Assembly (NCBI GenBank): GCA_965153355.1
Contig: OZ231126.1
Coordinates: 372,001-436,000 of the forward strand
From: Flaccisagitta enflata
Taxonomy: Eukaryota
Direction of reading: 5' to 3'
DNA length: 64,000 nt
Made by a program: the position numbers and the translations under genes. Below, in pieces: positions 19,947 to 64,000 of this stretch. The first letter of the stretch is position 1, and every line of letters starts with the position of its first letter. The notes under the pieces were generated by a model, which did no database searches, was not told the origin of the DNA, and worked only from the letters and a program-made list of their open reading frames with translations.

Positions 19947-42152
<22,206 letters not shown>

Positions 42153-42620: not shown

Positions 42621-44208
42621 TCTAAACGATTCGGGCAAATGAGCTCTACTTGGTGGCAAATGAAAGCTCTTTTGAAGCTCTTTATAACGGCCACCGAGTT
42701 TCTTATGTTTCTATAATTTCTATGAACACTCTTTTTTCATAAGAGACCAGGTTATAAGAGACATGAGCCTGAGATTTGCCGAAATTTGAAGAACAAAATA
42801 AGAGAATGCCCAGGCTGAGATTCAGCTTTGGCTATTTTCGAAAACAATTTTATTCAAGTTTCTTATCTAAAAAATAAATTCAATTCAAATTTTTTCAGAA
42901 ATTTAGGTTGATTATCTTTGAAAATAACTTCTTTTCTTAGTTTGCCTATGAAATCAGGCATTATATTCAAAAAATATAACAATTATCAAGTTTAAGATAC
43001 AACTGCTAGGTATTTTTATACAATTTAGACATTTATGAACATCGAACAAATTAAGAACACTTTAAGAGAATTTCAGGCTGAAAACAGACAAAAATTTAAG
43101 AACACACAGGCTGAGTTCAAAAAAGCTGTCTCTTTTAAAAACAAGTGTATAGAAAATATCCAAATAAAGCTGCTGAAATTTCAACATATACACAGCTACC
43201 TAGTTGCGTGCGGGTTGGCAGGAGCAGTGATGAAATAGACCAACCAAGCAGTAGGGCAGGAGCAGTAAACCCAAAACTGCCAGTAAACGCCAAGAAAGCA
43301 AAGTGTTATGGACCGACCGACCTACCGACGGACAGAGCGGGTTGTAGAGTCGCGTGCACGCGACTAAAAACAGAGATCAAAATGAATCATTTTACTCTTT
43401 CTGCTGTAAAATCTAAATGAAAATGAAAATGAAAATGAATCATTTTTTGAAATGAAAATGAAAATGAATCATTTTACTCATCTTAATCATTTTACTCTGA
43501 AAATGAAAATGAATCATTTTACACTTTCTGCTGTAAAATCTAAACGAATTGAACAATAGAGGTCTGCTTGGTAGCATCAAATCGCACTTTTGCAGAGCTT
43601 TCTATTGGTCACCAATTTCTCTATGTTTTATTGAATAATCTGGCCACAATGTAAGAAAATATGCAGGACTCTTAATTTGACCAAAATAGTGTTTTTTTTG
43701 TATGTTTGAGTGTGTGTGGGGGTTGGGGGGTGGATGAGGGTTTATTAGAAGTTCACGCTTGACGTAAAGCACAAAGTCTATGTAGCACAATATCACAAAA
43801 GTAATAATTATGAGAGTACATCAACTACATGAAGCACAGTGAGTAAAAAAAAAAGAAACATTTACCAACCATATTGATTCCCTCTCTCTAATAGTAAAAG
43901 CATGAGCAGTTAATCTCACAGTCACTCTGTATGCTGGACAATTGTGGCCATTTTCAGGTATACAATGTTCCTAGTAAAAGAAATTGTTTGATTTGAAAAG
44001 TTTCATGATAAATCAGCAATTATTTTTCTACAACAGAACATTTTCAGACCATCACAGCCTGCTTACATAACCAAGTCGTAACATTGTATACCATGTTTCA
44101 TTTCAAAAAAAGATATTTCTTCACCAACAGCCTGTATTCCTTCTTTACCAGTTCCTCTGTCTTATTTATTCTCATCTGCATTATGATCTCCCTCTATCCA
44201 ATCAAAAT

Positions 44209-44420
44209 CTAATTCCTCTCTATTATGGATGTGGCTACATATTTGATTCTGAAAAGAAGAGACACAAAACTCAAGGCTCATTTTTTACAGTAAGTTGGTC
44301 AACCTAACAGTTGAGAACAAGAGGGACGGAACAAAACGTGGCATATAGAGTCACGCAGATCAAGAGGGTCAGATTGGTTTGGTTAGGCCAGGTTAGGTTT
44401 AGGTTAGGTCAATTGTGCTA
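44209..44420 (-). pseudogene. Chimeric duplicate: Xkr intron 2 end, acceptor and first 22 nt of exon 3 fused to the end of exon 4
   Basis: 44227-44420 matches 49779-49972 and 44110-44226 matches 45107-45223; frame reads IKYVATSIIERN-stop. Confidence 0.8.
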
Positions 44421-44753
44421 AAGCACAAAGTCTGTGTAGCACAGAATCACAAAAGTAATAATTATGAGAGCACTACATTAAGCACAGTGAGTAAAAAAAA
44501 AGAAACATTTACTAACCATATTGATTTCCTCTCTCTAATAGTAAAAGCATGAGCAGTTAATCTCACAGTCACTCTGTATGCTGGACAATTGTGGCCGTTT
44601 TCAGGTATACAATGTTCCTAGTAAAAGAAATTGTTTGATTTGAAAAGTTTCATGATAAATCAGCAATTATTTTTCTACAACAGAACATTTTCAGACCATC
44701 ACAGCCTGCTTACATAACCAAGTTGTAACATTGTATACCATGTTTCATTTCAA

Positions 44754-45108
44754 AACAAGGCCAACACCTATAAGTCGCGTGCGAGACTTACAGACAAAGA
44801 GTGACTTAGAATGACTTAGAATGACTTTCAATGACTTAGAATGACCTAAAATGACCAAAAATAACTTAGAATAACTTAAAATGACTTAAAATGACTTAGA
44901 CTGACTCAAAATGACTTAGAATAACTATAAATGACTTAAAATGACTTAAAATGACCCAAGAGTTGACGTTATAGTACAAAAAAGTAAAGTGTGACGGACG
45001 GATGGACGGACGGACCGACGGACGGACCGACGGACGGACGGACGGACCGACAGACGGATGGATGGACCGACAAAGCAGGTTGTAGAGTCGCGTGCACGCG
45101 ACTAAAAA
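44754..45108 (-). mobile_element. HINE family A with an internal 10-bp AATGACTTAG array in the Xkr 3' UTR
   Basis: Both termini present; absent from the paralogous site at 44101-44115. Confidence 0.9.
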
Positions 45109-45158
45109 GATATTTCTTCACCAACAGCCTGTATTCCTTCTTCACCAATTCCTCTGTC

Positions 45159-46283
45159 TTATTTATTCTCATCTGCATAATGATCTCCCTCTATCCAATC
45201 AAAATCTAATTCCTCTCTATTATGAGCTTCATCACTTCCATCAGCTTCCTCATCATCCCCTTCAAAATCTTCATCCTTTCCATCAAAATCTTCTTCATCG
45301 TCCCCCACCCCAAAATATTCATCCTCTCCTTCAAATTCTTCATTTTCTCCACAAAAATCTTCATCATCCTCTTCAATATCTTCTCTTCTATATTCTCCAT
45401 CTTCTCCATCAATTTGATCAACAATATCTTCATTTTCCGCGACAAATTCTCCACCAAAATCTTCTTCCCCCTCCCCATTTACTTCTCCTCCACCAACGTT
45501 TCTCACCTGTCCAATGTGGCAACTCCGTCGCCCATCATCGGGATCTGTTTCCAACTCATCATCTCCGCCCCCTCTAACGTGGTCAACTCTTTTGACCTCC
45601 ACCACACCATCTAGAACCTCATCGATATCCAAATGAAACCTTGGCGAACAACATGATTTGGCGACCCTTCGAACCATCTCAACCAGCCAGAAGATGAGCG
45701 GAGCGGTAATGCGGGGGACAAATTCTCCAAAGCCAAAAATCAAAACACCCAAAATAAGGTGTAGTCCCCAACAAGTGATGGTGAAGTAAAACAACTTGGC
45801 AGCTTTGATACCATCGAGCATATTGATGAGAAAAGTAAATGAAAAATGACTTATATACATAATGACCGCGATGAATGGGCAACATGCGAAACTAAGGTGA
45901 AGTAAAGTACGAGTCACGCGCCAACAAAGGCTGGGTTTAAGGGGAATAAACAAAATTGAAATGGACACCAGAAAACTCAGTAGATTGGACCCCCATAAAA
46001 ACCAATCGTAATAGTGCCACCAATCGGAAAAAGTAGTGTCAAATGTTTTGAATGGATCAAAGACGGCGTATCTGAATTGTGTCGTGACCATCGTGACGCC
46101 GCTTAAGAGGAAAAGCGCCAGAGGTGAGAGCGACGCCGCCGCTGGGTAATGGGGGCTCACAAAATTGTGGCTTCGATGTGCGGCGAAAGATTCCATGAGA
46201 GAGCGAGCCACCGTCAACGTGGAAGTGACGATAGATACGCTTTGGATGAAACCAATACCGGAATAATTGTCCCGCTCTTGCAG
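45159..46283 (-). CDS. XKR: Xkr gene exon 4 (LQERDNYSGIGFIQSVSIVTS..., TM helices, Asp/Glu-rich tail, stop)
   Basis: Acceptor ttcttattcaag|CTG phase 0, in frame with the 352-aa ORF 45159-46217; several TM segments then about 155 aa acidic tail. Confidence 0.9.
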   Translation of the reverse strand: MQERDNYSGIGFIQSVSIVTSTLTVARSLMESFAAHRSHNFVSPHYPAAASLSPLALFLLSGVTMVTTQFRYAVFDPFKTFDTTFSDWWHYYDWFLWGSNLLSFLVSISILFIPLKPSLCWRVTRTLLHLSFACCPFIAVIMYISHFSFTFLINMLDGIKAAKLFYFTITCWGLHLILGVLIFGFGEFVPRITAPLIFWLVEMVRRVAKSCCSPRFHLDIDEVLDGVVEVKRVDHVRGGGDDELETDPDDGRRSCHIGQVRNVGGGEVNGEGEEDFGGEFVAENEDIVDQIDGEDGEYRREDIEEDDEDFCGENEEFEGEDEYFGVGDDEEDFDGKDEDFEGDDEEADGSDEAHNREELDFDWIEGDHYADENK

Positions 46284-49200
46284 CTTGAATAAGAATGGAA
46301 AACACCCGGGGGGTGATAAAGAATGGAAATTGATACTTGCTTACAATGATGGTAATGATGGCAATGATGGCAATGATTTATCTAGGATAAGCAAAAAGTC
46401 CAAAAACTGCGATAGACGCTGTAAAAGATAGAGCTATTCGAGGTACTCAGGAGTGAAGGCTTTCCAAATCTTTCTTGTGATTTTTTTTCTATTCTTTCGC
46501 TACAATAAGACTTATAGCTTCCAAAAGAACCATCAAAGTAAAGAAAAATCGGTGACATAAATGAAGCCTTTCGAATTTGCAAGCAGGCAACGCAAATTGC
46601 ATATGTCCAGTTCAACGCGTTTAGAAGTAATTAAAAAAAAGAGTAAAATGATGTCATCAGAAGATTTTGTAAAGATGGCAAAAGTGAAAGTGCAGTATTT
46701 CAGTCAATGTTGAATAGCTTTTAAAAGCATAGAGCTAGAGGGATGCGGTTTGCGTCAATCTCTTGCAAATTTGAAGGGCTATACCCCGTGTTGGCTGGTG
46801 TCATGCTAAGCCAACTGAGGACGGGTGGAATTCGTCAATTTTACATGTTGGAAAATTGAAGAAAATCATACATCATTATGTAGCCTAGCTATTAGTACAT
46901 ATGGATCCATACTTGGATTTTCTTAAGTACGCTCATTTTTCATGCAAATTAGGCTTAAAAAGGTATTATAGGCAGTTTTATTACTAAAGAATTTAGCTAA
47001 ATACAATAAAGAAATCAATATGACAGTAAAATTCTTATTGATAACGTTCAAGCAATCATGTGTGATCATATGTTGCTAAGAAATTTTCAATTTTTTAGTT
47101 TTTTAAAAAAATCTCTATAAGTACCATTTCTGGCTGGGTGGGCTGTTGGAGAAAAATTTTTTTACCCAAGCGCTTATTCAAGCCAGTGATGAGGAACCTT
47201 TAAAGGAAGCTTCATGCAAAATTTCAACCAGATCGGACAATTATTATGGAAGTTATGCCATTTTTTAATTTTTTCATCTGGTAGGCTGGTTGATCTGGTT
47301 GGACCGCATAACATTTTTTAGGTCGATCAGAATCTAGGCAATGGACCCTTTTGGTCTAGGTATCAACCATGAAAAATTTCAATGGGCTAGCTTGAACAGT
47401 TCCTGAGATATGCCAATTTCAATTTTAAGAAATTTTACCAAATTTAGACACAAAAACATTGCGCATTTGTGTGAGAAGCGCTGTGTGGAAACAAAGAATT
47501 AACTACAATGAGCCGTCGATGAGCGTATCAATTCTGTTCACACTTCAGGACCAACAAAATGTAAAATTTCATTGTGACAAAATGCCTGAGAGTTAAGGTT
47601 TCAAATTATCAGAGGAGAATCAAAATTTCACGCTCTTTCACATGGTGTGGTCAGATTTTATGTGAATTGTTTCATTTTCACACCATAGTGGCATATTTAA
47701 AGCGTTAGGTATGCGTTAGGATCAAGTTTGGGGGTGTGCGCGAATTGATACGCTCCAAGAAAAGAACCATTTCTCTGCATAGGATCAACCCAATAACATG
47801 AAAATGGAGGGAAATGTCCTTCAAGTTGTTGTCCATCGAATTGCAAGAAAAAAAACGCTTAATGTTTAAGATAAATGAGGTTTAAAAAAATAAATATCAT
47901 AACATTCAATCTTGAGAGAAAAAAAGTAAAAAAATCGAGAAGGGGTAAATTTGATTTTTATACCATTTTTTGACAACTTATTGATTGAGTAGTGAGTTGA
48001 ATTTTTTTGTATATCCTGTGGGATTGATACTAGTTGATAAACACTCATAATATCATAAGATGCGACATTTTTTTATTGGTTTTGCTTGCTATTTCTTACA
48101 GGAGACAGAATGGAGACACGCCAAAAAGAGCTCTTTGAACAAATTTTTAGACCCTCTAGGGGTAGGGAGGGTCACAAAAAATGGTTTGAAATTGTACACT
48201 GGGTAGTTATGAATGTCTTTGAACCATTTAATTCGTTTACAATGCTGTATCTGAAGCTTGGGCCAACATAGATTGGCAGAAAGTCGGGCCCTCAAGCATG
48301 CTGTGGAACCGTGACATTTGCCTGTTCAATCTCAAAGTGGGAAAAGTAAAAAGCCTACATTCCTAAACGCAACCAGTCAGTGATTTCAAATCAATATTCT
48401 CTTGTAGTATATTTGACGTTTTTTGCATAAAAATTTCATTAGTCTAGTCTCAATAGTTTGGTCACAACATCAATTTTAAGTGAATCAAGTATATTAAACT
48501 TGAGCTAAAAAACTCTCATTTCAATCATGATAGTTTCTCTTAAAATTGCTCTAATTTCTAAACGGTTTGAGTTGCAAATGCCAGATTGGTCTCAAATAAA
48601 GGATAATTTGAAAATGTTTGCATCTGAGACCAATCTGGCAAAGGTTATCAAGCCGTTTGAGATTTAAAGGCAGAATATTGAAAGGTACTGTTGATGTAAT
48701 TGTGAGTTTTTGAGCTTCAACTGTAAATACTTGTTTTACTTCAAATTGATGTTGTGGACGAACTATTTAAGCTAGACCAATGAAATTTGTATACAAAAAA
48801 CGTCAAACATATTACTACATGAGAAAAATGATTTGGAATCACTGTCTTATTGCGTTTAAAAATGTAAGTTTTTTACTTTTCCCACTTTGAGATTGAACAC
48901 CCTGTAATTGTCTTATCAATTTTTTGATGATTGGTTGATTCTAACCTGAGATATGCATGCAAACGTACCGAAAGATTTTTCCGCTTAGATGGTAAATTTT
49001 TTTTTAAAACCCAATTTGTTTGTCTAAAACAGACGAAATCGGTTGAAAGTTCTTCTTTTTTTCAGAACTAGATTTTCATCTCTAGAGGCTCAAATAAAGT
49101 TTTTATTGGTGGATTTTCGCAGGTATAATTCCCTATAAAGCGATTGCATGATTGTTTAAATCACCACAATAGTTTGCAAAAAATGACCAAAGTTATCTGA

Positions 49201-52200
49201 CAGCCAATGGCAATGATTGAAAATGTGCGAAATAACGGTAGATGCTTGGAGGAAAAATTTTATGGCTCTCTATGGCCAAAAACTATCGGCAGTGACCCTA
49301 TGAAAAAAAGAAAGAAAATAAAAGGCTTTTTTTATTTCAAGAATTTCTCTTTAATTTCTTTGTTAACTTTGAAGTTTCGCTGCTGATGGTTTAAGGTCAC
49401 GTGGGGTCATAAATTTTGTTTTCTGGCTATCTTCCGCATATTGCGACATGCCAGCGCACTGCATTGGGTGATTGGAAAACTTAGGTTTTTAGTCGCGTGC
49501 ACGTGCCTCTACACCCTGCTTTGTCTGTCTGTCCGTCCGTTGGTTGGTCAGTTGGTCTTTCTGTCAGTCCATCACACTTTTATTTTTCAAGGTCATTCTG
49601 AGTCATCCTAAGTCATTCTAAGTCAATCTCTGAGTGTCGCACGCGACTTTTAGGTGTTGGCCTTGTTTTCTTACTAAACATAATCACCACTCACTGTGAG
49701 ATTTGTGCGAATTTGAACGCTGCACCACTGAGTAACAAGTTGAGGCAGGGATTCCAGAGCAATTTCGCCCATTTTCAAGGATGTGGCCACATATTTGATT
49801 CTGAAAAGAAGAGACACAAAACTCAAGGCTCATTTTTTACAGTAAGTTGGTCAACCTTACAGTTGAGAACAAGAGGGACGGAACAAAAGGTGGCACATAG
49901 AGTCAGACAGATCAAGAGGGTCAGATTGGTTTGGTTAAGCCAGGTTGGGTTTAGGTTAGGTCAACTGTGCTATACACCTTCTCTCCTTTTTGGGCAGCGG
50001 CCCCGAAGGGGCCGATGACCTATGCTTTCACACAGGGGAAATTTCTCCTTCACCTTCTTCTCCTCCTTCTACGTCCCCCCCCCCGGCCTTGGGACCCAAA
50101 TCCCACCTCAAGGCCATATCCCAGCCCTTTAACCCAAATTCTGGCCTAGAGGCCCAAATTTCAGCATTGAGACCCAAATTCCAACCTTAAGGCCCCAACC
50201 CCAGCTTCAAGGCTCAAACCCCAGCTTTCTGGCCCAAATCCCACACTTGAGCCCTTAATTTCATCCTCAAAGCTGAAACCCCGACCTCAAAGCTCAAATC
50301 CCAGCCTCAAAGCTCAAATCCCAGCCTCAAAGCTCAAATCCCAGTCTCAAAGCTCAAATCCCAGCCTCAAAGCTCAAATCCAGCTTCGAGGCTCAATCTC
50401 AGCCTTGAGGCTCAAATCCCAGCCTCAAGACACATACCCAAGCCTCAAAGCTCAAATCCCAGCCTCAAGGCTCAAATTCCAGCCTCAAGGCTCAAATCCC
50501 AGCCTCAAGGCCCAAATCCCAGCCTTGAGGCTCAAATCCCAGCCTTGTGGCTCAAATATCAGCTCGGGGCTCTAAATGCAGCTCCTAGGCTCATATCCCA
50601 GCCTCCAGGCCCTAATTCCAGCCTTAAGGCTCAAATAAAAACAGCATAGGTCATCGGCCCCTTTGGGGCCGCTGCCCCTCTAACCACCTCACACCAACAT
50701 ACACTCACATAGGGGCAACGGGTACCGCTGACCATCTAACGCTTTTGCGACTATTCTTCTTTACCTGAAAATGACAAAAATGAATTTAACAATTGCTTTA
50801 CACGTATTTGGTAGAATTATAGCTTTTTTCCCCGGAGTCTGCAACTAGTTCTCCTTGGAGTCTTCTTGCGGCACTCCATCTGACCCCTATGGAGTTCTAA
50901 CGGCTGACTGCCTCGCAGTTACATCTTTCACTGCATTTTTGCAGCGTCCCCGGGAAACTAAGGGCACCTTCTACAAAATTAACAACAACTGACTCAAAAG
51001 TCAAAGGCTATGGAGAATCAACTTACTACTTACCAACTGACAAACCAGCTGTTAACATGATTCTTTTGTAAGATGCTAAGAATTCTGTACTTTAGAAATT
51101 AAAAAAAAAAATGATGAAACAAAAAAAAAGAACAACAAGAGACCTATGTTTAGAAGAAATTCACATCCGGACTTACAATCAAAGACTGACAATCAAGTGC
51201 TAGGCCTAGTTACGGAACCCATGACTGCTGGAAAAGAAGACATCCTTGCACAATGCCAAAAGGCATTTACTGGGACGCTGGGGATTTGCCCAGGAGGGCC
51301 TTTGGGGCACGCCAAGACGCCCAAGGAAGATGGAATGGCCACACTTTCGAATGTGATGTCATCGGCACCAAACGGTTCTGAAATGTTTCTGTTTTACCGG
51401 TATTTGTACCGGTAGCTCGTTGTTTTTAAAATGAATTTTGTTTTTTAGTCCCGGGCACGCGACTCTATGACCCGCTTCGTAGGTCGGTCGGTCGGTCTGT
51501 CCGTCGGTCTGTAACACTTTGCTTTTTTTGTCGTTTTGCGTCATTTTATGTCATTTTAGGTTATTTCAAGTTATTTTAAGTCATATTAAGTCATTTTATG
51601 TCATTTCCAGTCATTTCAAGTCATTTTTAGTCATCTGAGTCATTTTGTCATTTTTTGTAATTTTTATCATTTTAAGTTATTATAAGTCATTTAAAGTCAT
51701 TTTAAGTCATGTTAAGTCATTTCAAGTCATTTCAAGTCATTCTAAGTCATTCTAAGTCATTATAAGTCATTATAAGTCATTCTAAGTCACTCTAAGTTAC
51801 ACTTTGGCTTTTGTAGTTTTTGTCAATTTGCATCATTTTAAGTAATCTCGAGTCATTTTTAGTCATCTCAAGTCATCTCAAGTCATTTTAAGTCATTCTT
51901 GGTCATTTTGAGCCACTTTTAGTCATTTTTTTTTCTTGAGGTCTGGTTTAAGTCTGGTTAATTTCTGGTTTATGTCTGGTTTGAGTTTTGTCAATGTCTG
52001 GTTAAAGTCTGGTTTTTGCCTGGTTTAAGTCTGGTTTAAGTCTGGTTTAAGTCTGAATTAAGTCCGGTTTAAGTCTGGTTTAAGTCTGGTTTAAGTCTGG
52101 TTTAGGTCTGGTTTAAGTCTGGTTTAAGTCTGGTTTAAGTCTGGTTTACGTCTGGTTTAGGTTTGGTTAAAGTCTGGTTTAATTCTGGTTTAAGTCTGGA

Positions 52201-55200
52201 TTAAGTCTGGTTTGAGTCTGTTTAAGTCTGGCTTTGGTCTGGTTCAGGTCTTGTTTAGATCAGATTTAAGTCTGGTTTATGTCTGGTTTACATCTGGATT
52301 GATTCTGGTTTATGTCTGGTTTAGGTCTGGTTTAGGTCTGGTTTAAGATGGTTAAAGTCTGGTTTAAGTCTGGTTTAAGTCTGGTTCAAGTCTGGTTTAA
52401 GTTTGGTTAAAGTCTTGTTTAAGTCTGGTGTAAGTCTGGTTTTAGTCTGGTTTATGTTTTGAAAAGGTTTGGTTTGAGTCTCGTTTAAGTCTGGTTTAAG
52501 TCTGGTTTATGTCTGGTTTATGTCTGGTTGAAGTCTGGTTAAGGTCTGGTTTAGGTCTGGTTGAAGTCTGGTTTAGGTCTGGTTTAGTTTTGGCTTAGGT
52601 CTGGTTTAGGTCAGATTTAGGTCTGGTTTATGTCTGGTTTAAGTCCAGAATAATTCTGGTTTAAGTCTGGTAAAATTCTGGTTTGAGTCTGGTTTAGGTC
52701 TGGTTTAGGTCTGGTTTAGGTCTGGTTTAAGTGGGGAGGGTCGGTCATTCAGAACTATCATGATTTCTAGGGTTCTATGGAGTCTAAGGACTCAATGGGC
52801 TTGATATGAATCACATTTCATGAGAAAATTCGAACTCGAGTTATCCCTCATCTGAAAACATCTGTTTTCTTGCCTCTTGGAATAGTAACAACATTTCAGC
52901 TGCTCTTGAGGAAAAATTAACAAATTTTAGAGTCTAGTGACTGACGAAAATTTCTTGTACCGATGCTAATTCCCTGATTAGCTGCTTAAAAATTCTAAGC
53001 TATGCCATTGGTTGCCACGATTTTCCCTATGTAAAGTAAAATTTATGACTCTTAACAACATATGATGCACCAACCAATGAGCGTTCATGTCATGACCCAA
53101 CAACCAATCACAGCTCAGCCTGAATGTGGCGCTAGTAGTCATGTTAGTTGGGCCACACTCAGGCTTGAGAACAACCAGCCTCATAGAAAGTGGGGACCTA
53201 ATAAATTGTATAAAACCTCCTAAGAAGGATCGCGAAAAATAGCATTGGAGTGAATTCGACAATCAATAAACAGTGGAGAATAGAAAAAACATGCCAGCTT
53301 CTTTATGATCTTACTACCAGCCACGTGGTTCTCCCAATGCTTAGCTGTCATGTTATTGAGGAATGGAGGCAGAGATTGCTGGTGTTTAGAAAAAAAACAT
53401 AAGGCTAATTACGGTCTCCCTAGTTTAAGTCTTGTTTAGGTCTGGTTTGAGTCTGGTTTAAGTCTGGTTTATGTTCGGTTTAAGTTGGTTTGAGTCTGGT
53501 TTAAGTCAGGTTTAAGTTAGGGTAAGGTCTGGTTGAAGTCTTGTTGAAGTCCGGTTTAAGTCTAGTTTAAGTGTGGTTTGAGTCAATAAAGAGATTCAAT
53601 AAGGAGTCAAGTCAATTCAGTTATTTTTGTTTCGCACGCGACTGATAGGTGTTGGCCTTGTTCGGAAAAAGAGTGCCTGCTCCTACTTTAACGATGCATA
53701 AATACAATCTCAGATATGTTGAGAGGTATAAATACCTAGGTGTCACGATTATTGCTGGAAGTTAAAGTTTCAACCTCACATTTCAAACCTGCTGCAAATA
53801 CGGTACTAAATGACATGTGCAAAAGAAAGTTAAAATATAGTTACAACTGAAAAAGCAAAAGGTACTTTATTTCTGTACAATATATGCTTCCACTCATATA
53901 CATACAAATCCAATCTTATGCTATAACCCCTAACTTTTTGGTTAAAGAAATAATTATCAGTAACCTATGGATTGGTATTTTTATACAGATATTAAGGGTT
54001 TTGTTAAAGACTTACAAAATAACTAAGCTAAGGATAAGAAATTCTAAAAGGGAGTTAAGATATAATAACCTTAATCTAGCGCTGAGTTCTGGCATTGGAT
54101 GGGTCTTCCAATTCAGCTATATTATAAGTTAAACTTAACTGAAAAATTGGAACTGAGAGGTCCATATCCCCAGTTTTTATCCTTTTCCTCAATCAAGGGG
54201 GCTGGGACATGGTGAATTTTTACTAAAGGGGTAAGGTTACCTTTTCTAGATAATTAAATCTTCTAAGAAGGTAACGAACGGGTGGTCAAAAAAAAAGTGA
54301 CTAAGCCAGCTTTTCCTAAAAACAAGTTAGAAATTTTTTTTTATAATAGGCATGGAATTTTAAGCTAAAAACGCAAAGCACCAGTGAAAGATTCGTATAA
54401 GTGAATGAGGGGCTGTCTTAACTTGCTGTGTGTATGTGGACAATGCTTGGTTCAAAGTAAAACATACTGCGCTTTTGAGTTTTAAATGTGTACTATTATC
54501 ATAAATTCCTCAATGAACAAGAGACCGCAGCTTGTTTTTAAATCCTCTGCCGCTGCTCCTGACGCTGCCGCTGCCATGTTCATATGTTTTTTGTGTTTTC
54601 TGCCTTGTGTCCCTAGAGGGCCGCTAAAACAGAGATCAAGAGGAAAGCAAAAGAACAACTCTTGCCAAAATTCTTTATAGATGATGACAAAGGCACAGGC
54701 GCTTTATGATTTTCGATATAACAAGGTGAAATTGGCGTCTAAACCGAAAGTTAAGACAGCTTATGGCCCGCCGAGGTGCCCTGAATCCTGGGATTCTCGC
54801 CATATTGGATGCCTATTTATAAGTTGATATTTTGAAAATGAAGTGAAATATATTAAAAAAATCAATTTTTTAAATTTTCTTAAACAAATACCTACATAAA
54901 TACACAAAAGTAAAATGTTTGCATAAATTAGTGATAACATAGATAATCAATTGTTTTTAGGAAACACATATGTTAATTAGGTCCAGTCTGAAATAAACAC
55001 AATTATTCATAAGCCACTAAGCTTTGATTTAAGAGATTTGAATAAAAAAGAAAAGTAAGTTTTTCAGAAGTATCTTTTGTTTTCTTGTTTGTTTGTTTTT
55101 ATATGATTTTAGTCAGGTTTTTTACCAGCTTTTGAGTCATCCTTAACTATAAATAGTGAATCCATGAAAAAAATTCTAATTTTCACGCAAAAAATTATTG

Positions 55201-58200
55201 CAAAAATCAAGGCGGTCCAAAATCAAATTAAGTTTATTGTAAATAACTTGAAATTTATAGAAAATTTACAAAAATCACAATAATAAAAAAAATTCTCCTG
55301 CACCATATCTTTTTAGCTAGAAGAAAAGTTTTGCTCAAAATGTTTTTTTACAAAACATATGAGAAAACAAAAAAGTAACTTTTTTTTTGACCACCCGTTA
55401 TATCATGGGATGATAGGTCTCCATGAAGGGTAAAAAGTAAATGTCCATATAGCGCTATAAATAGAAAAAGAAATATTTTTTAAACTTAGAAAAATTGATC
55501 ATCAGTTGGAGACCTGTATCCTTTTGAGTTTTGCACCTTTAACTCCAATACCCAGATACAGGTGGTGCGCATCAAAAGGTGCCCTCCACTGAATGTATCC
55601 ATCTGAAAAAAGCCATCGGAACAAATTCTCATGAAAAGTTATATGCTACGTGTATCCCTCACCTAACTTATGCATCTGATGTCATTTTTTACGCTGCTGC
55701 TCAAATGCAGCCATTGAATGATACATTGAATGACTGTTATCGTTGTATTTTCACATACAAAAGGTGGGAGAGCGTTCGCTAATTACGCTTTTCATCTGGG
55801 TATTCATCTTTGATAAGAATTTTTGAATCTCGCTCTCGCAGGTTTTTGAAGCAGCTTTCAAAGCTTGGAAACACTACTTTGGAATGCTTGTACAATCTCT
55901 ACAATCAACGCAACTGATTGTTGCTTTTCCCTTTGTCCTTTTTTCCAAAGTAGTTTACAGTCGATGAATGTTGTTGTATGGTCTGTCGCCAATGACGAAT
56001 GAAAGATATTAGGAAATTGGTTGGTTCCCTGACATCCGTTATTGCGGGGTTCAACTCATTGGTGTAGGACAAGGGACATCCAGGCCACCCATGGACGGCC
56101 CTGTCTGTTGGGCTGGAAAGTCTGTCGGGCTGCAACCAGTAAAGAAATTAATAAGAAGGAAAGGAAGAAGAGAAAAAGATAAAAAAAAGGAGTAAAAGAA
56201 GAGAAAACATGAGAGAATAAAATAAGAAAAGTTGTTTTTGATTTCTAAGAGCTAGCTTGAGTATAAAGAGGCTTAGAAAATGGAATAAAAGCATAGTCAA
56301 GGTTTATTATATTGAGCTTGAAGTTACTGTCGGGCTTGAAAATGGCTTAGATGTCCCCGAGGTTTTTGCTCCCCTACACCGATGAGTTGGTTCAACTGTT
56401 TCAACTATAAACAGTTCTTGGGGGCATTTCTTGTCAAAGACAATAGCGTTTTGAACGGGTCACTCGGTCGCTTGCTACGTTCATTCACTCGCACCGCTCA
56501 CTCCGCTCACGAGTTCCACAGCGCTCCGCTTTGCTACGCTTGCTTCACTCGCTCGCTCCATTCACGGGCTTTCTCGCTCACTCCCTCAGTTTAAATTCTT
56601 GAATATGTGTTTACGCTGAAAATGTGTTCAATGGGAACAAACGCATTTTTGGTTGCCAGTAGAAACACGCCCTTACTCAGCAACTTGTTCAAAGATGTCA
56701 TCTCCAGTTAGGCGAAGAATGAGAAATGCGGCAAATATGTAAAGAACGACTATAACTATAACTATAACTATAACTATACCTTTAACTATAACTATAACTA
56801 TAACTATAACTATTACTATAACTATAACTATAAACAGTTCTTAATTTGTAACTTGTTCGAAGATGTCATCTCCAGTTGGGCAAAGAATGAGAAATGCGGC
56901 AAATATGTAAAGAACGACTATAACTATAGCTATATCTATAACTATAACTATAACTATAACTATAACTATAAATATAAACAGTTCTTACTTTGCAACTTGT
57001 TCAAAGATGTTATCTCCAGTTGGGAATAGAATGAGAAATACGGCAAATATGAAAAGAATGACTATAACTATAATCGTAACTATAAATGTATAACTATAAC
57101 TATAACTATAAACAGATCTTACTTCGCAACTTGTTCAAAGATGTCATCTCCAGTTGGGCAAAGAATGAGAAATGCGGCAAATATGTAAAGAATGACTATA
57201 ACTATAACTATAACTTTGACTTTAAATATAACTATAGCTATAACTGTAACTATAACTATAACTATAGATATAACTATAACTATAAACAGTTCTTACTTTG
57301 CAACTTGTTCAAAGATGTTATCTCCAGTTGGGCGAAGAATGAGAAACGCAGCAAATATGTAAAGAATGACTATAACTATAACTATAACTTTTACTATAAC
57401 TATAAAGAGTTCTTACTTTGCAACTTGTTCAAAGATGTCATCTCCAGTTGGGCGGAGAATGAGAAATGCGGCAAATATGTAAAGAATGACTATAACTATA
57501 ACTATAACTATAACTATAACTACAGTCGAACCCCGCTCTAACGGATTTCAGGGGACCGACAATTTTCTTCTGTTATAGGCGGACTTCTGTTATTGCCAAC
57601 AGAGGAAATAAAAGAAATCAACTTGATGGGACCGTGAATTTGCATCTGTTATAGGCGGAATTCCGTAGGTGGCGGGTCCGTTAGAGCGGGGTTCATCTGT
57701 ATGACTATAACTATAACTATAACTATAACTATAACCAGACATGTCACGATACTATCGTCTGGGCGATTTATCGGGTCGATTTCTATATTTCTAGATAATC
57801 TTCCTGATTCACCAAAACACAAATGTATCGGGTCGATTTTTCGCCTTTTTTCCGGCACTAAGAAACGGCATGTTTGTTAGTGTTTGATACCAAAGCAATG
57901 GAAAAAACAAAGCAAAATCGCTGACCATTTTGAAGCTCTGCAAAATATCTTTCAGATGAGACCTTGCTGGACGTCTTAGCTTTATCTGTTTAGAAATGAC
58001 ATTAGGATTAAGACACATCCTCATATACTTAAATATTTATAGTGAGGGATATTGTTCCACTTTTCACAGAAACTAAATGCATTGAGTTGGAAATTCGTTC
58101 TTGGCGCCATTTAAAAAAAAATTCAAAGCTCTTTTTATTTTGATCATGGATATCATGTACTCTTTTCAGCTATGTTGTATCATTAGGATAATCATTATGA

Positions 58201-61200
58201 CTAGAATTACGTGTAGGGAGAAACACCAAAATTTGCATTTTAAGTTGCAAACACGCAAGTCAATAAAAGCCGTTGTCCGTCTGTTGGTCCATTGGTCCGT
58301 TGATCCGTGAACACGAGTCAAAAAGTGTGAGAAAGCACATTTTTCGCCCTTGCCTACCTGCAACTGGTATTGGCTGTGTTTCCGACCTTGTTTCAATCAG
58401 TGATGTTTTTCTTTAATCCTTTGCCATTTCTAAACGACTAAATTTACCAAGACCAGCAATGTTGCATTTGGAAGTTTTTTCGAAGATCTTTAAAATGACC
58501 TTGCCCATTGTTCTACCCCTTGATATGACTTATTAGAATGCCCTTTGTATGAGAGATGCCTGTAGTGAGTTGTTATTGTAACAAGGCTGGATACACGGCT
58601 ACCAAAGTCATGTGCAGGTGGGCAGGGGCCATATTTGAGGTCACTAGACCATCAACGCAGGAGCAGTGAGGTCAAAGAAATAAAATCATAAAAACAGTAT
58701 CGACCGGCCGACCAACTGACCGACCAACAAAGAGGGTTGTAGAGTCGCGTGCACGCGACTATAAAACATCTCCCACTAAAAACGGCACTGCCGTGCGGCT
58801 TTTTGCTTCAAAATGATTCTGAAAACTGATCTGGAATTCTGACACAAAGGCGCACAGGTCTAGTAAATGCTGTACACATCGCGCCAGTGTAAAATTGAAG
58901 ATACCAGAACGTTAAAAAGAATAAATCCTTTTAATGTAGAAATATTGTGGATTGTAGTCTTTTTTTTTTTTTTGCTGTAGAAATATTACGGATTGTAGTC
59001 ACAAAAAAATAAACCCAATCATCTGGCAGGTACGTACTTTGCCATCTATTACAAACAAAATTTGCCCTTATTAAAATAATTTAATAATGACAAAACATAA
59101 CGTTCCAAGGTTGTATAACATGACATGAACAAGGCCGGATACACGGCTACCTCAGTCGCGTGCGGGTGGGCAGGGGCCGTATTTGAGGTCACTTGGTCAC
59201 TTGGGCAGGAGCAGTGAGGCCATAGACCGCAAAAACCCAAAAAAAGTCGAGTGTGACGGACGGACCGACGGACCGACGGACGGACGGACCGACAAAGCGG
59301 GGTGTAGAGTCGCGTAGCACGCGACTAAAAATGTTCTTGAAACTGATCAACTGCCTCATTTTCCCCGTTCTTTTAATGCTTGTTGGTAAAACTTAAATAG
59401 TTATTTTTCAAATTTTCTTTACTGTCTGAAATGCTGTTATATTATCCAAGTGGCAAAAAATCGACCTGCGGTCGATACTAAGTCGATTCTTTTTTTGGGA
59501 TCGACCATGATTCGATCGACCTGGTCGATACTAAAAAATAAAAAATCGTGACACCTATGACTATAACTATAACTATAGACAGTTCTTACTTGCAACTTGT
59601 TCAAAGATGTCATCTCCAGTTGGGCGAAGAATTAGAAATGCGGCAAATATGTAAAGAATGACTATAACTATAACTATAACTAGTAACCAGTCACGTAACT
59701 CGCCCATGTGTTTGAAATCTATCGTTGAAAAGCTTCTTTTTCTCGCGTGAAAATAAGTTTAATGTACATGTCTTATCTGATGATTGCATTTTTTTTAACA
59801 GTGTATATGTATAATTAGACACATGTATGCCATTATACACCATGGACATTCAGGAAATGTAGATAAAAGCGATGAAAAACAAGCAACGCAATCCAGAGAA
59901 AATGCTGAAAACTCTTTCAACTTTGAGCATACAGAAGGGGGTCTCAATTTATTTCTGTCTGCGCCTTTCAAACATATATGATAGAGGACATCAAATGCTG
60001 TCTGGAACTGTTTTCAAAAAATATTTTCTCCGATGCAAACCCTTTCTACCAATCGCATCTTTCCATAGCAAGAAAGCATAAAAACAACTAAGCAAGTAAA
60101 CAGTTTCAGAAGGGAGTAAGCGGAAAGAGCGATTTTAAGAACCCAGTATCTATTTAATCATCATTGTCTAATTTGTACAAAAATTGAACCCGGTTAATAT
60201 TCTATTGAACACATACTTTTTTAATGTTTAATAAAGCCTTTTTCGAAGAAATCATCCTAAAAAGTGATATAGAATTTTTAGGCATCATCTCTGTACTATA
60301 ACTATAACTTTAACTAAAACTTTAAACAGTTCTTACTTTGCAACTTGTTCAAAGATGTCATCTCCAGTTGGGCGAAGAATGAGAAATGCGGCAAATATGT
60401 AAAGCATGACTATAACTGTAACTATAACTATAACTATGACTATAACCAGTTCTTACTTTGCAACTTGTTCAAAGATATCATCTCCAGTTAGGCAAAGAAT
60501 GCAAAATGCGCCGAATATAAAAAGCATGACTATAACTGTAACTATAACTATAACTATGACTACAACCAGTTCTTACTTTGCAACTTGTTCAAAGATGTTG
60601 TCTCCAATTGGGCGAAGAATGATATATGCGGCAAATATGTAAAGAACAACTGGGGCCATAAGAAAAGGCGCCGTGATCAAAGCGATGATTCTTAGCCCCA
60701 TAGGCAATGGGGCGAGATGGGTATGTCCAACTGAAGTAGGGAATAGTAAAGCCATATCCATCAGGGTGGGGTTTGGGAGGTCATAGGTGCCATAAGCTTA
60801 TGTAATTCTACAAATTACCTCCATTTATTACAATAAAAAGATTAACCAAATCTCATGACCATCTGACAAGTCCCTGACAGGGCCACCACCCCCCCCCCAT
60901 TTTTTAAGGGCAAAAAGGTTTACAAAAATTTGTTCCCATTGAATCCTATGATGATTGAAGGGGGGTGGCTGTCCTATCAGAAACATGTCAGAAGGTCATG
61001 AAACTGGGTATATCTTTTTATCATAACATATGGAGGTAGTATGTAGAATTGCATAGGTTTCTGAGACCTAAGACTTTGTTACCCCCACCCTGATATCCAT
61101 AATCAAGATTCTTAAAATCAATACTTTTTGGGCAGCAACCCCAGAGGGGACGAAGTCTTTTAGACTTTCGTTTGTCCATCTTGTAGACTTTCGTTTGTCC

Positions 61201-63789
61201 ATCTTGTAGACTTTCGTTTGTCCATCTTGTAGACTTTCGTTTGTCCATCTGTCATTCCGTCTGTCCGTTTGTCTCCCCCAGGCTCTCTAAGGCCTAAAAT
61301 TTGCCATCTCAGGCCTGAAATCTACCCTCTTTGGCCTGAAATCTGCCCTCTCAGGCCTTGAATTTGCCCTCTCAGGTCTGAGATCTGCCTTTTGGGCAGC
61401 GGCCCCGAAGGGGACGAAGTCCTGTAGAACACAGAGGGACTTTCGTTCGTCCGTTCATTTGTTCATCTGCCCCCCCCCATCAGGCCCCTCAGGCCTCAAA
61501 TATGGCCTCTCAGGCCTCAAATTCTGCCTCTCAGGCCTCAAATCCAGCCTCTCAGGCCTCAAATCTTGCCTCTCAGGCCTCAAATCCAACCTCTCAGGCC
61601 TCAAACCTGACCTCTCAAGCCTCAAATAAGGCCTCTCAGACCTCAAATCCGAAATCTCAGGCCTCAAACCTGGCCTCTCAGGCCTCAAATTAGGCCTCTC
61701 AGGCATCAAATCAGCCATCTAAGCCTCAATTTATTGCTCTCAGGCTTCTAATCAGTCCTCTGATTTCAAGCCTTAATCCAGCTCTCCCAAGCCTCAAGTC
61801 AGCCCACTCAAGCTTCAAATTGGCATTCTCAGGCCTTATATCGGCCTTCTTAGACCTCAGTTTAGGCTCTTGAATGCCTTCAGTCAGCCCTCTATAGCAT
61901 CTCATCCACTTCTTCAGGTAGGACAAACGAAAGTCCCTCTGTGTTCTACAGGACTTCGTCCCCTTCGGGGCCGCTGCCCTGCTTCCCCTCACTCCAATCC
62001 ACAATCACTCAAAGCAGGGCAACGGGTATCGCTGACCACATATTGCCCTTGGGCGACCTGTTCAAGCCTGAAATCTGTCCTTTCAGGCTTTGTCCCTGCT
62101 CTCACAGATTCAAGGCCTGAGAGGGCAAATTTCAGGCTTAAGAGGGCAGATTTCAGGCCTAAGAAGGTGGATTTCAGGCCTGAGAGGGCCGGGGGGGGGG
62201 CGGATGGATGGACGGAATGAAGAATGGACAAACAAAAGTCCCCCTGTGTTCTACACGATTTCTCCCCCTTTGGGGCAGCTGCCCTGCTTTCTCTCACTCC
62301 AATTCTCAATCATGCAAAGCAGGGCAACGGGTATCGCTGACCGCATATTGCCCTTGGGCGACCTGTTGGGTTGTTGCTGCGTAAGGGCTGATGTCTTGTA
62401 GAACATAGGGGTGAATTTCTGTGCATCTGTACATTCTTCCATTCTTTCTTCTGTACTACTCCCAAAGGCCCCTAGAGCCTTCTCAGTAGCCCAACAATTA
62501 ATTACCCAAAGTCATGGGAAAGTTCTCTATCAAGGGGAAATAGCTCAAAATCATGTATAGAGATGGTTCATGGAAAAAATCTAGCCATAGGACCCCAATA
62601 AACTATGGCCGCCACCCACTCCATTCCCCATAATTAAGTAAAGGAAACTCTGGAGGCCAAATCTATTCCATTCATTTTCTATGGGATATGAGGGGGGTGG
62701 CGGCCATAGTTTATAGGGGTCCCATAGCTATATTGTTTTGTTGGACCATCATTATACATGATTTTGAGCTATATCCTTTTGATAGAGAACTTTCCTATGA
62801 CTTTGTGCAAATTCTTGTTATGCTACTTCTCAGGCCCTAACCTAGTTCTTACACACCTGAAATCAACCTTTCCAGGCCTGAATTTGGCACTGTAATCTAA
62901 GTAAGTTGTACTTGAAGTTGTGGGAGGGAGCGGGGCAGCAGCCCCAAAGTGGTCAATGACCTATGCTTTCACACATATGGGGTAATTTCACCTTCACCTC
63001 CTAGCAATTGGAATTTGGTCCGTGAGGTGGAAATTTGGGTATCTAGGTTGGGATTTTGGTATCTAGGCTGGGATTTTGGCCTCTAGGCTATGATTTGGAC
63101 CTCTAGGCTGAGATTTTGGACTCAAGACTGGGTGTTAAACCTCAAGGCTGGGTGTTAAACCTCAAGGCTGGGTGTTAAACCTCGAGGCTGGGATTTAGGC
63201 CTGGGGGATGGGATTTGGGCCTGGAGGCTGAGGTTTTGGCCTCTAGGCAGAGATTTGGGCCTAGAGACTAATTGTCAAGCCTCGAGACGAAAATGGGGTT
63301 GAGGTCTCGGAGATAGGATTTGGGTCTTGACTGGAATTTGGGTCTGGAAGATGGGATTTAGACCTTGAGGCTGAGCTTTGGGCCTGGAGGCTGGGATTTA
63401 GGCCTTGAGGCTAGTGGGGGGGGGGAGACGGACAGAGAAGGAGAAGGAGGAGAAGGAGAAGGAGAAAATTCCCCAAATGTGTGAGAGCATTTACTAGGTC
63501 ATCGACTCCTTCTTGGCCGCTGCACAAAAAATTGGATGCTACGTGACTGACCTAATATGTATCTTAGCATGATGCAAAACTGCGCCGAGCCTCCCAAAAC
63601 GATCCACGATGTCGTTAGTATGAAAAAAAGATCCACGTCCAGGTTTTCAATATATACATATATAACTGGTTTTAGATATTCTGGTTTTAGATATTCGTAA
63701 GCAAGTGCGAAATCAAAGGCGATGTCCACTATGACCAAAATCGCCGCCGCGCACAGCAAAAATACTTGGCTGAATCGTTTCAACTCCAT
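45159..63789 (-). CDS. XKR: XK-related (Xkr family, putative phospholipid scramblase) gene; 4 coding exons 63789-63552, 60730-60577, 49800-49695, 46283-45159; 540 aa
   Basis: Exon lengths 238+154+106+1125=1623 nt; all introns GT-AG with matching phases (1,2,0). N-terminal DxxxDxxLAxxY...FxLT pattern, ExxLESLPQLxxQ motif and QxxSIxTS helix are XK-family hallmarks. Symbol is family level only. Confidence 0.85.
48323..48904. mobile_element. Palindromic mariner-like MITE, left tip truncated
   Basis: TGTTCAATCTCAAAGTGGGAAAAGTAAAA arms of about 190 bp; right end CACCCTG followed by TA. Confidence 0.75.
49486..49669 (+). mobile_element. HINE family A just downstream of the Xkr exon 3 donor
   Basis: TTTTTAGTCGCGTGCACG start; CGCACGCGACT...GGCCTTGTT end. 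Confidence 0.8.
49695..49800 (-). CDS. XKR: Xkr gene exon 3 (IKYVATSLKMGEIALESLPQLVTQWCSVQIRTNLT)
   Basis: Acceptor ctcttcttttcag phase 2; donor ACA|gtgagt phase 0; carries the XK ESxPQL motif; absent from the ORF track. Confidence 0.9.
49992..50755 (+). mobile_element. Family B element, full length, with 20-bp minisatellite core
   Basis: 35-bp IRs, the 3' IR about 80 bp inside the end; tail GGGCAACGGGTACCGCTGACC; T-run at the 5' side. Confidence 0.85.
51441..53662 (+). mobile_element. HINE family A inflated by 10-bp AAGTCATTYT and 11-bp AAGTCTGGTTT arrays
   Basis: 5' TTTTAGTCCCGGGCACGCGACT; 3' CGCACGCGACTGATAGGTGTTGGCCTTGTT. Confidence 0.8.
53690..55900 (+). mobile_element. Degenerate LINE (RT C-terminus) split by nested DNA-transposon insertions
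   Basis: LRYVERYKYLGVTIIAG at about 53709-53759, resuming as KLYATCIPHLTYA...RCIFTYKRWESVR at about 55635-55779. Confidence 0.6.
54277..55399. mobile_element. Non-autonomous TIR element (Tc1/mariner-like)
   Basis: AACGGGTGGTCAAAAAAAAAGT and its reverse complement at the two ends. Confidence 0.65.
57523..57699. mobile_element. Tigger-like MITE in (TATAAC)n
   Basis: CAG..GAACCCCGCTCTAACGGA TIRs, TA on both sides. Confidence 0.85.
57736..59559. mobile_element. Non-autonomous hAT-like element containing nested HINEs
   Basis: Imperfect 15-bp TIR CA.A..TGTCACGAT, subterminal GGTCGAT/ATCGACC repeats, flanking ACTATAAC (inside a microsatellite, so a weak TSD). Confidence 0.6.
59128..59330 (-). mobile_element. 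HINE family A, intact copy
   Basis: All modules present: hairpin end, sub-TIR, GACG/GACC repeats, terminal palindrome; similar copy at 58580-58765. Confidence 0.85.
60577..60730 (-). CDS. XKR: Xkr gene exon 2 (VGHTHLAPLPMGLRIIALITAPFLMAPVVLYIFAAYIILRPIGDNIFEQVAK)
   Basis: Acceptor ccctacttcag|TT phase 1; donor GCAAA|gtaaga phase 2; hydrophobic open frame. Confidence 0.85.
60790..61062. repeat. Degenerate palindromic MITE-like element
   Basis: TATGTAATTCTACA..TACCTCCAT...TCATGACC.TCTGACA is mirrored at 60985-61055. Confidence 0.55.
61130..62367 (+). mobile_element. Family B element (21-bp core) with a younger family B copy nested at 61394-62062
   Basis: Two 5' IR starts and two near-identical 3' tails ending GGGCGACCTGTT; the inner IRs are perfect over about 45 bp. 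Confidence 0.85.
62507..62805. mobile_element. Palindromic MITE
   Basis: CAAAGTCAT.GGAAAGTTCTCTATCAA...AAACTATGGCCGCCACCC arms mirrored; TSD not clear. Confidence 0.7.
62933..63530 (-). mobile_element. Degenerate family B element about 20 bp downstream of the Xkr exon 1 donor
   Basis: IR-like ends and reverse-complement 20-bp units TTGAGGCTGGGATTTGGGCC. Confidence 0.7.
63552..63789 (-). CDS. XKR: Xkr gene exon 1 (MELKRFSQ...VDIAFDFALAYEY...MLRYIL)
   Basis: ATG at 63789, two hydrophobic helices, donor TTAG|gtcagt in phase 1. Confidence 0.85.
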
Positions 63790-64000
63790 AGATCTCTAAT
63801 CTCACTTATTGACGGGTAGGTAGGTAGGTAGGTAGGTAGGTAGGTTGGTGCGTAGGTAGGTAGGTAGGTAGGTAGGTAGGTAGGTAGGTAGGTAAGTAGG
63901 TAGGTAGGTAGGTAGGTAGGTAGGTAGGTAGGTCGTGTGAGATCAATTCTTTCATATGCGAAAATAAAAAGGTGGCATTGAGAGATGAAGAAAAAGACGT

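Follow-up and report, generated by a model that had tools for sequence, protein, structure and literature searches.

A tandem array of exon-end and splice-donor copies in intron 2 of a candidate XK-related gene of Flaccisagitta enflata, probably a decaying minisatellite across an exon-intron boundary

The host gene and the array at the start of its second intron

We analysed a window of 64,000 nucleotides (nt) from Flaccisagitta enflata (assembly GCA_965153355.1, contig OZ231126.1, positions 372,001 to 436,000 of the forward strand; coordinates below are those of the window), in which the beginning of one intron carries nine copies of the end of the preceding exon together with its splice donor. 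The host gene lies on the minus strand, and a four-exon model was read from the sequence. Exon 1 (63552..63789) opens with an ATG at 63789 and ends in phase 1 at the donor TAG/gtcagt, where the slash marks the exon-intron boundary. Exon 2 (60577..60730; 154 nt) runs from phase 1 to phase 2 and is followed by the donor AAA/gtaagaactg (60576-60567), whose partner is the acceptor of exon 3 (49695..49800; 106 nt, with the motif ESLPQLVTQW). Exon 4 (45160..46283) encodes the membrane part and an acidic tail and continues through the stop. Intron 2 measures 10.8 kilobases (kb) and the joined model 540 amino acids; searching the model back onto the window with tblastn served as a check (exons 1 and 3).

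With the membrane part of exon 4 as query, phmmer returned 35 proteins (E up to 0.001). Once fragments that stem from the same gene or from nearly identical ones are set aside, these matches reach at most 42% identity, and the well-covered full-length ones at most 36%. Thirteen of the 35 were scanned against Pfam, and two passed the cut-off of 24.8 bits for the XK-related family PF09815 (P0020 with 32.1 bits and P0004 with 26.7); P0028 fell below the gathering score of this family with 19.6 bits, and ten of the 13 gave no XK-related match. The four exon translations, each scanned singly, matched no Pfam family at E up to 10. A separate exon 4 search yielded three ENA fragments and nothing else, and when the 50-residue exon 2 peptide was compared with longer proteins, none of eight candidates matched at E up to 10. 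These results support the assignment of the host gene to a divergent XK-related subfamily by transitive homology, not by a direct profile match. The label 'Xkr' used in the original prediction therefore stands through the homologues that pass PF09815, but finds no direct Pfam match in the single exon translations.

The nine copies occupy the 5' end of intron 2, on the minus strand, from 60529 to 56677. Each repeats the last 73 nt of exon 2 (the parent segment, 60577..60649, minus strand) and its donor, AAA/GTAAGAAC, and the first copy (c1) begins 47 nt past the authentic donor. Searching the window by blastn with the exon 2 region gave exactly nine further minus-strand matches to the 3' end of the exon, with 83.5-92.6% identity over 80-92 nt, and nothing comparable elsewhere in the window. 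A 25-nt probe over the exon end and donor found 8 sites at up to 3 mismatches, compared with 0 in 100 shuffles; it misses c3, which has a deletion, and c9, both with more than 3 differences. Before each of the nine copies stands a (GTTATA)n tract, variable in length, that ends in AG. Their 5' edge reads ...TTATAG/TC(A/G)T and aligns with CCAG/TT inside the exon, and their 3' side is AAA/GTAAGAAC or a close variant in seven of nine, the exceptions being c8, where the donor is destroyed, and c9, which diverges after GTAAG. The spacer reads (Val-Ile)n in the frame of the exon, and in this frame none of the nine copies contains a stop. Eight copies are 73 nt long and lead from phase 1 to phase 2, while c3 has 72 nt. 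The duplicated part amounts to 73 of 154 nt (47% of exon 2), and the 5' 81 nt of the exon are absent from the copies. The earlier description of nine exon-end copies with their donors, of AG-ending spacers lined up with an internal AG of the exon, and of open frames throughout was thus borne out, and that of phase 1 to phase 2 cassettes holds for all copies but c3.

The end of exon 2 and its donor form the first repeat unit, in register with the rest. Both the exon period (60649-60530, exon to c1) and the c1 period (60529-60410, c1 to c2) measure 120 nt; they align without a gap, and over the 67 nt from unit position 54 to the end of the spacer the exon and c1 differ once. Tandem Repeats Finder (TRF) reported periods of 120, 144 and 308 for the array. 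Its majority sequence differs from the exon at 7 of 73 positions, of which 5 are internal and 2 lie at the 5' edge; about 5 shared differences had been counted earlier. An assembly artefact was considered and rejected, as the copies differ from one another at 3-16 of 87 positions and are parted by distinct insertions.

The copies, all on the minus strand, have diverged to different degrees. The most diverged is c1 (60457..60529; 73 nt), which differs from the exon at 16 of 87 positions and has a donor equal to the authentic one. An intact AG...GT frame and 73 nt are found in c2 (60337..60409), which encodes VMLYIFAAFLILRPTGDDIFEQVA, and likewise in c4 (57417..57489) and c5 (57297..57369). One A has been lost from the terminal A run of c3 (59590..59661; 72 nt), and this copy would shift the frame if spliced in place of exon 2. 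The remaining four have 73 nt each. In c6 (57123..57195) Arg is changed to Cys at a CpG and the donor reads GAA/gtaagatc, and c7 (56989..57061) has Arg to Phe, Ala to Val and Tyr to Phe. The donor of c8 (56845..56917) is destroyed (AAA/ttaagaac) and the copy carries Arg to Cys; c9 (56677..56749), at the distal end, has the donor TGA/gtaag, with Pro to Leu and Lys to Glu. The single mutated donor (c8, with TT in place of GT and the changed base at 56844) and the single 1-nt deletion (c3, at 59590) were both anticipated in the original prediction; its consensus peptide is found in c2, c4 and c5, allowing for I/M and D/N, and is altered by replacements in the other six copies.

The array is broken up by four stretches, all of them with diverged copies in other parts of the window. 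The donor tail of c9 is broken after GTAAG by a dispersed repeat of about 260 nt (56421..56676, minus strand) that resembles a miniature inverted-repeat transposable element (MITE) and has a 72% identical copy at 24468-24744. The remainder of the tail, AAGAACTGTTTATAGTT, resumes at 56420-56403 on the minus strand (56403..56420), which reading of the sequence and alignment indicate to be the true end of the array. A MITE in the (GTTATA)n spacer upstream of c4 (57523..57699) has 25-nt terminal inverted repeats that are 92% complementary, TA at its flanks, and a further copy at 22781-22953. Between c3 and c4 lies an insertion of about 1.8 kb (57738..59556, borders approximate) with terminal and subterminal inverted repeats and with nested short dispersed repeats, the latter present in many copies in the window; the stretch 58948-59581 shows high read depth in all four RNA runs described below. 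The fourth, some 0.6 kb of non-repeat sequence that separates c2 from c3 (59681..60291, borders approximate), includes a part (60164-60290) with a dispersed copy at 21580-21711. The array is therefore not recent, and towards insertions it has behaved like any other intron DNA.

Direction of copying and decay of the copies

The exon 2 peptide aligns with residues 78-117 of P0020 at 45% identity over 40 residues (E 7e-11), and this alignment spans the duplication boundary. In a multiple alignment all four longer homologues carry ...TAPIL(M/L)AP(V/A)(V/I)...IYGAY...(K/R)KKP(D/E) opposite TAPFLMAPVVLYIFAAYIILRPIGD of the window. The homologues align continuously across the duplication boundary, which settles the direction of copying: the exon is the parent. 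Its end has long been conserved in the family, and the intronic units are derived from it. Four to five internal differences from the exon are common to all nine copies, which argues that the array expanded from one duplicate that had already diverged. At the 5' edge c8 and c9 have TCG, one step from TTG in the exon and with an exon-like G at unit position 3, and c1 to c7 have TCA, the product of a CpG transition. One further change is common to c1 and c2. Pairwise differences among c2 to c6 range from 3 to 6 of 87 positions, rising to 16 for c1.

We also observed that the 5' edge of the duplicated segment, GTTCTTTAC (60640-60648), approximates the reverse complement of the donor GTAAGAAC (60567-60576), and that the same relation recurs in the copies. 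Predicted folds pair this edge with the donor at ordinary energies (z -0.64 to +2.29). The complementarity might bear on the duplication breakpoints or on the accessibility of the donor.

Substitutions in the copies affect residues that the family retains. All nine copies have Phe in place of the Tyr of (G/A)AY, which the exon shares with all four homologues. The basic residue past the helix (Arg here, Lys or Arg in the homologues) has become Cys or Phe in four copies; the Arg changes arise through CpG transition, and C to T at one CpG recurs in four copies. The Pro after this Arg is Leu in two copies. Altogether a disabling or radical change is found in six of the nine: the frameshift of c3, the donor loss of c8, and a change in the Arg-Pro motif in c1, c6, c7, c8 and c9. 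Transitions make up 22 of the 32 variant cells of the alignment. The rate of change is alike in the 10-nt intronic tail (3 of 80 cells) and in the exon-derived part (29 of 584). Since a complete lack of stops would have a probability of 0.43-0.67 under neutrality, the open frames are uninformative in this respect. By these features the copies look like decaying pseudo-exons and are mostly unlike maintained exons.

Splice signals, RNA reads and the competing explanations

GT is kept in eight of nine copies, and the donor of c3 differs at position -3 alone. On the acceptor side, pyrimidines make up 45-55% of the last 20 nt before the copies and 4-6 further AGs lie within 40 nt upstream, compared with 75-85% pyrimidine and 0-2 upstream AGs at the three real acceptors of the gene. 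We computed the consequence of each splice choice. Extending exon 2 to the donor of c1 would meet AAG TAA at once, and the addition of any of the nine copies after exon 2 would bring in a stop 17 codons into the unit. Replacement of exon 2 by a copy would keep the frame in eight of nine cases and remove 27 codons, in agreement with the loss of 27 codons given in the original prediction; these include TAP(I/F)L(M/L)AP, the best-conserved motif of the family, present in all four homologues. As predicted from these frames, use of the first donor is the only choice that yields the conserved protein.

RNA reads were mapped on 45000-64000 from three marine metatranscriptomes (X1-X3; 5-6% of sampled words) and one polyadenylated (polyA) run (X4; about 6% of reads sampled, with part of the array, 56741-56984 and other stretches, skipped as repeat). 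The exon 1 bins have zero depth in X4 at about 6% of reads, and depth elsewhere on 45000-64000 falls on dispersed repeats. Among 15 of 64 joints listed, none touches a copy, the host gene itself being uncovered by reads. Contigs from X1-X3 match the unique intronic stretches 46793-48189 and 53124-54783 at low depth, with 0-7 differences per 83-305 nt, and none match exons; these matches could stem from DNA carry-over, from intronic or antisense transcription, or from another transcript.

An array of structured RNAs, such as small nucleolar RNAs or microRNAs, was considered and rejected. No Rfam family reaches its gathering score on 56300-60800, and the sole match at E up to 1 falls within the 1.8-kb insertion, at 58390-58417 (CRISPR-DR7, E 0.62, 22.2 of 37 bits). 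Fold z-scores of four units are unexceptional (-0.64, -0.32, +2.29 and +1.54).

We consider it likely that the array is a neutral, decaying minisatellite that spans the boundary of exon 2 and intron 2 and contains silent pseudo-donors. Among the readings put forward earlier, that of a neutral exon-born satellite is the best supported, by the ancestral exon end, the decay of the copies and the transposon insertions. The reading as an array of decoy donors would agree with a documented class whose pseudo-sites as a rule remain silent (PMC1557585). In the course of events that we propose, a tandem duplication would have taken the last 73 nt of exon 2, the donor and about 10 nt of intron, with breakpoints probably in an AGTT microhomology between CCAGTTGTT of the exon and the (GTTATA)n microsatellite with which the intron begins. 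From one diverged duplicate, unequal exchange between the microsatellite spacers, or slippage, would then have produced the nine units. Going by human precedents, splicing would take the first, authentic donor, and the whole array would leave as intron. The array may be tolerated because such first-donor splicing leaves the mRNA unchanged. The silent 5' pseudo-sites and pseudo-exons would be free to drift, lose CpGs and gather transposon insertions.

Several observations weigh against this explanation. The donor is identical to the authentic one over -3 to +8 in five of nine copies (c1, c2, c4, c5 and c7), and seven of nine retain AG, an open 73-nt frame and GT. Exclusive use of the first donor was itself unseen, as RNA depth is zero at exon 2 and at the main part of exon 4 in the four runs, which leave the gene unsampled. 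The pattern of differences in c1 is not explained by simple drift: its flanks differ from the exon flanks at 1 of 76 positions (from unit position 54 across the spacer and on into the unit that follows), and its core differs at 9 of 44 positions from c2 (Fisher p 5e-4) and at 13 of 44 from the exon, which suggests patchy gene conversion or a mosaic origin. Finally, comparison of synonymous and non-synonymous changes in the aligned copies, proposed earlier as a check on the alternative-exon idea, gave a weak synonymous excess. Of the 24 distinct variants, 11 are synonymous when read in the frame of the exon, compared with 5 in either of the other frames; a count of 11 is attained in 496 of 20000 permutations of position. 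If each distinct variant is taken as one event, the binomial P is 0.018-0.050; it is 0.045-0.11 at our best guess of 27 events and 0.135-0.275 with all 32 cells as events. Event counting (11 synonymous against 13-21 non-synonymous changes) gives an omega of about 0.4-0.75, or of about 0.5-0.75 at 27 or 32 events. Because P rises when recurrent changes are counted separately, the excess is not robust and its P, anywhere from 0.018 to 0.275, depends on how events are counted. We treat it as a weak hint, and a history of weak purifying selection is possible.

A rival explanation gives the copies some low or regulated use, either as cryptic donors or as 73-nt 'poison' cassettes; inclusion after exon 2 would bring the frame to a premature stop and so lower the output of the gene. 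The U1-binding sites, being clustered, could instead aid the definition of exon 2. The five donors that equal the authentic one, the eight retained GTs, the AG directly upstream of every copy and the stop that all nine copies introduce when added after exon 2 are what such use would predict. The weak acceptors with their 4-6 competing AGs, the decay of the copies at the rate of their own intronic tail, and the use of the authentic donor alone in F7, LMNB2 and PDGF (PMC1557585) speak against it, and we regard it as unlikely, if by no means far-fetched. That the spliceosome samples the units as 73-nt cassettes, either as poison exons throttling a phospholipid-scramblase-like XK-related gene or as in-frame substitutes for exon 2, appears quite improbable; if it did, the (Val-Ile)n microsatellite and a copy would together replace the lost helix, and the synonymous excess would be a trace of selection.

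The original prediction had also entertained nascent mutually exclusive exons, a cluster replacing exon 2 and giving a protein that lacks 27 residues and has a variant helix end. Eight of nine copies do lead from phase 1 to phase 2 without a stop, the (Val-Ile)n spacer is in frame so that any of its AGs would preserve the frame, and the weak synonymous excess points the same way. However, the copies are partial duplicates of 73 nt against 154 nt, not duplicates of the whole exon, and their use would remove TAP(I/F)L(M/L)AP, a segment conserved in four of four homologues. The conserved Tyr is lost in all nine, radical Arg-Pro changes affect five of nine, and the acceptors are weak. Nor was any sign of a complementary docking sequence seen: all arrays of (GTTATA) type in 48000-64000 belong to the array itself. 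On these grounds the idea is disfavoured and we hold it to be highly improbable. The reverse direction of copying, in which a pre-existing intronic or dispersed repeat gave exon 2 its end and donor, would draw on a weak 24-nt unit match at 40556-40533, outside the gene (E 0.01), which is followed by a different microsatellite. Against it, homologues at no more than 36% identity carry matching residues that are continuous with the upstream part of the exon, and blastn and the probe found no other copy of the unit in the remaining approximately 60 kb of the window. Two scans of metagenome contigs, with the 28-nt unit end and donor and with a degenerate back-translation of IFEQVAK followed by GTAAG, gave 0 matches each. 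We find this direction barely credible, and the homologue alignment brings it close to refuted. The decaying minisatellite with silent pseudo-donors remains our preferred reading.

Neighbouring repeats and known systems of the same kind

Other repeats surround the array. About 0.75-1 kb downstream of the stop of the gene lies a chimeric pseudo-terminal exon (44107-44420, minus strand). Its part 44227-44420 is a 95% copy of 49779-49972, that is of the last 172 nt of intron 2 and the first 22 nt of exon 3; fused to this at 44227, its part 44107-44227 is a 97.5% copy of 45104-45224, comprising the coding end, the stop and the start of the 3' untranslated region. Spliced from exon 2, the chimeric piece would read KIKYVATSIIERN and then a stop. 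A second exon boundary of the host gene has therefore been locally duplicated. The piece is flanked by a 348-nt direct duplication of 95% identity (43765-44112 and 44419-44759), which points to tandem duplication of some 650 nt in this downstream region. The 24-nt unit match at 40533-40556 (minus strand, E 0.01) reads DNIFEQV, as the exon end does, and its 3 differences are all at third positions of codons. TGA stands before it, and GT and then a long microsatellite of (GTACTTACATAC) type come after it; it could be a chance match or a piece of the end of exon 2 that has become an orphan.

Minisatellite arrays of 20-nt units lie in opposite orientation in intron 2 (49987-50636) and intron 1 (63141-63530), flanking exon 2 and the array; they share 68-72% identity over 120-244 nt, and 61285-62189 is taken up by related 21-nt arrays. 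The inverted arrays could pair in the pre-mRNA. They show high read depth in all four RNA runs, and we therefore assign them to an abundant repeat family. Long microsatellites of (GGTA)n and (ACATACTTAC) type are found directly upstream of the start codon (63815-63933) and downstream of the gene (39744-41900). With 37 TRF rows in 48000-64000 alone, the locus appears unusually prone to tandem arrays.

Literature searches aimed at the mechanism, and not at XK-related genes, brought up no report of an array of this kind in a gene of that family. Three kinds of known system can be compared with the present array. Like mutually exclusive exon clusters that arise through tandem exon duplication (PMC9741552, PMC9013439, PMC6071210), the array consists of tandem homologous units in the same phase with AG and GT, and the open frame in the same phase is found in eight of nine copies. 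It departs from those clusters in that the units comprise 73 of 154 nt and not a whole exon, that use of a unit would delete a conserved segment, and that a conserved residue is lost in all copies. If the copies were nevertheless used, they would offer a rare view of the birth of an alternative- or poison-exon cluster. Intron gain through tandem duplication of an exonic segment with AGGT (PMC3265369, PMC4974935) is alike in that splice signals are multiplied, the duplicate is spliced out and the mRNA stays the same; in the present case there is no new intron, and the duplicates lie inside an existing intron and would have been amplified later. Such an array is a possible route for the build-up of partial-exon duplicates with ready splice sites, the raw material in models of exon duplication.

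The closest likeness is to minisatellites whose first monomer spans an exon-intron boundary, a class known from human F7, IFI 6-16, CBS, LMNB2 and PDGF (PMC1557585). In intron 7 of F7 the variable number of tandem repeats has a 37-bp monomer of 4 bp exon and 33 bp intron, present in 5-9 repeats, and the most upstream donor alone is used (PMC1557585). The authentic donor is likewise the only one used with the 100-bp monomer of LMNB2 and the 81-bp monomer of PDGF intron 4, whereas two proximal pseudo-sites are used as well in IFI 6-16 (intron 2) and CBS (intron 13); pseudo-sites of the class are normally silent (PMC1557585). The present array resembles this class in three points of anatomy, namely a tandem array at an exon-intron boundary, a first monomer lying across the boundary, and repeated donors. 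Silence and length polymorphism were shown for F7, and the likeness of the present array is one of anatomy alone. If it is an ordinary member of the class, it would be a clean, non-mammalian boundary-spanning minisatellite and, like F7 intron 7, a test bed for how the first of many identical donors is chosen. It differs from F7 in the amount of coding sequence per unit, 73 nt (47% of the exon) against 4 nt, and from the class at large in the divergence of its units (7 differences from the exon, and 3-16 of 87 among units) and in being split by four insertions. In addition, the hexanucleotide spacer supplies an AG, so that each unit is an in-phase pseudo-exon, and it is this twist, a complete pseudo-exon in every unit, that the array adds to a known class.

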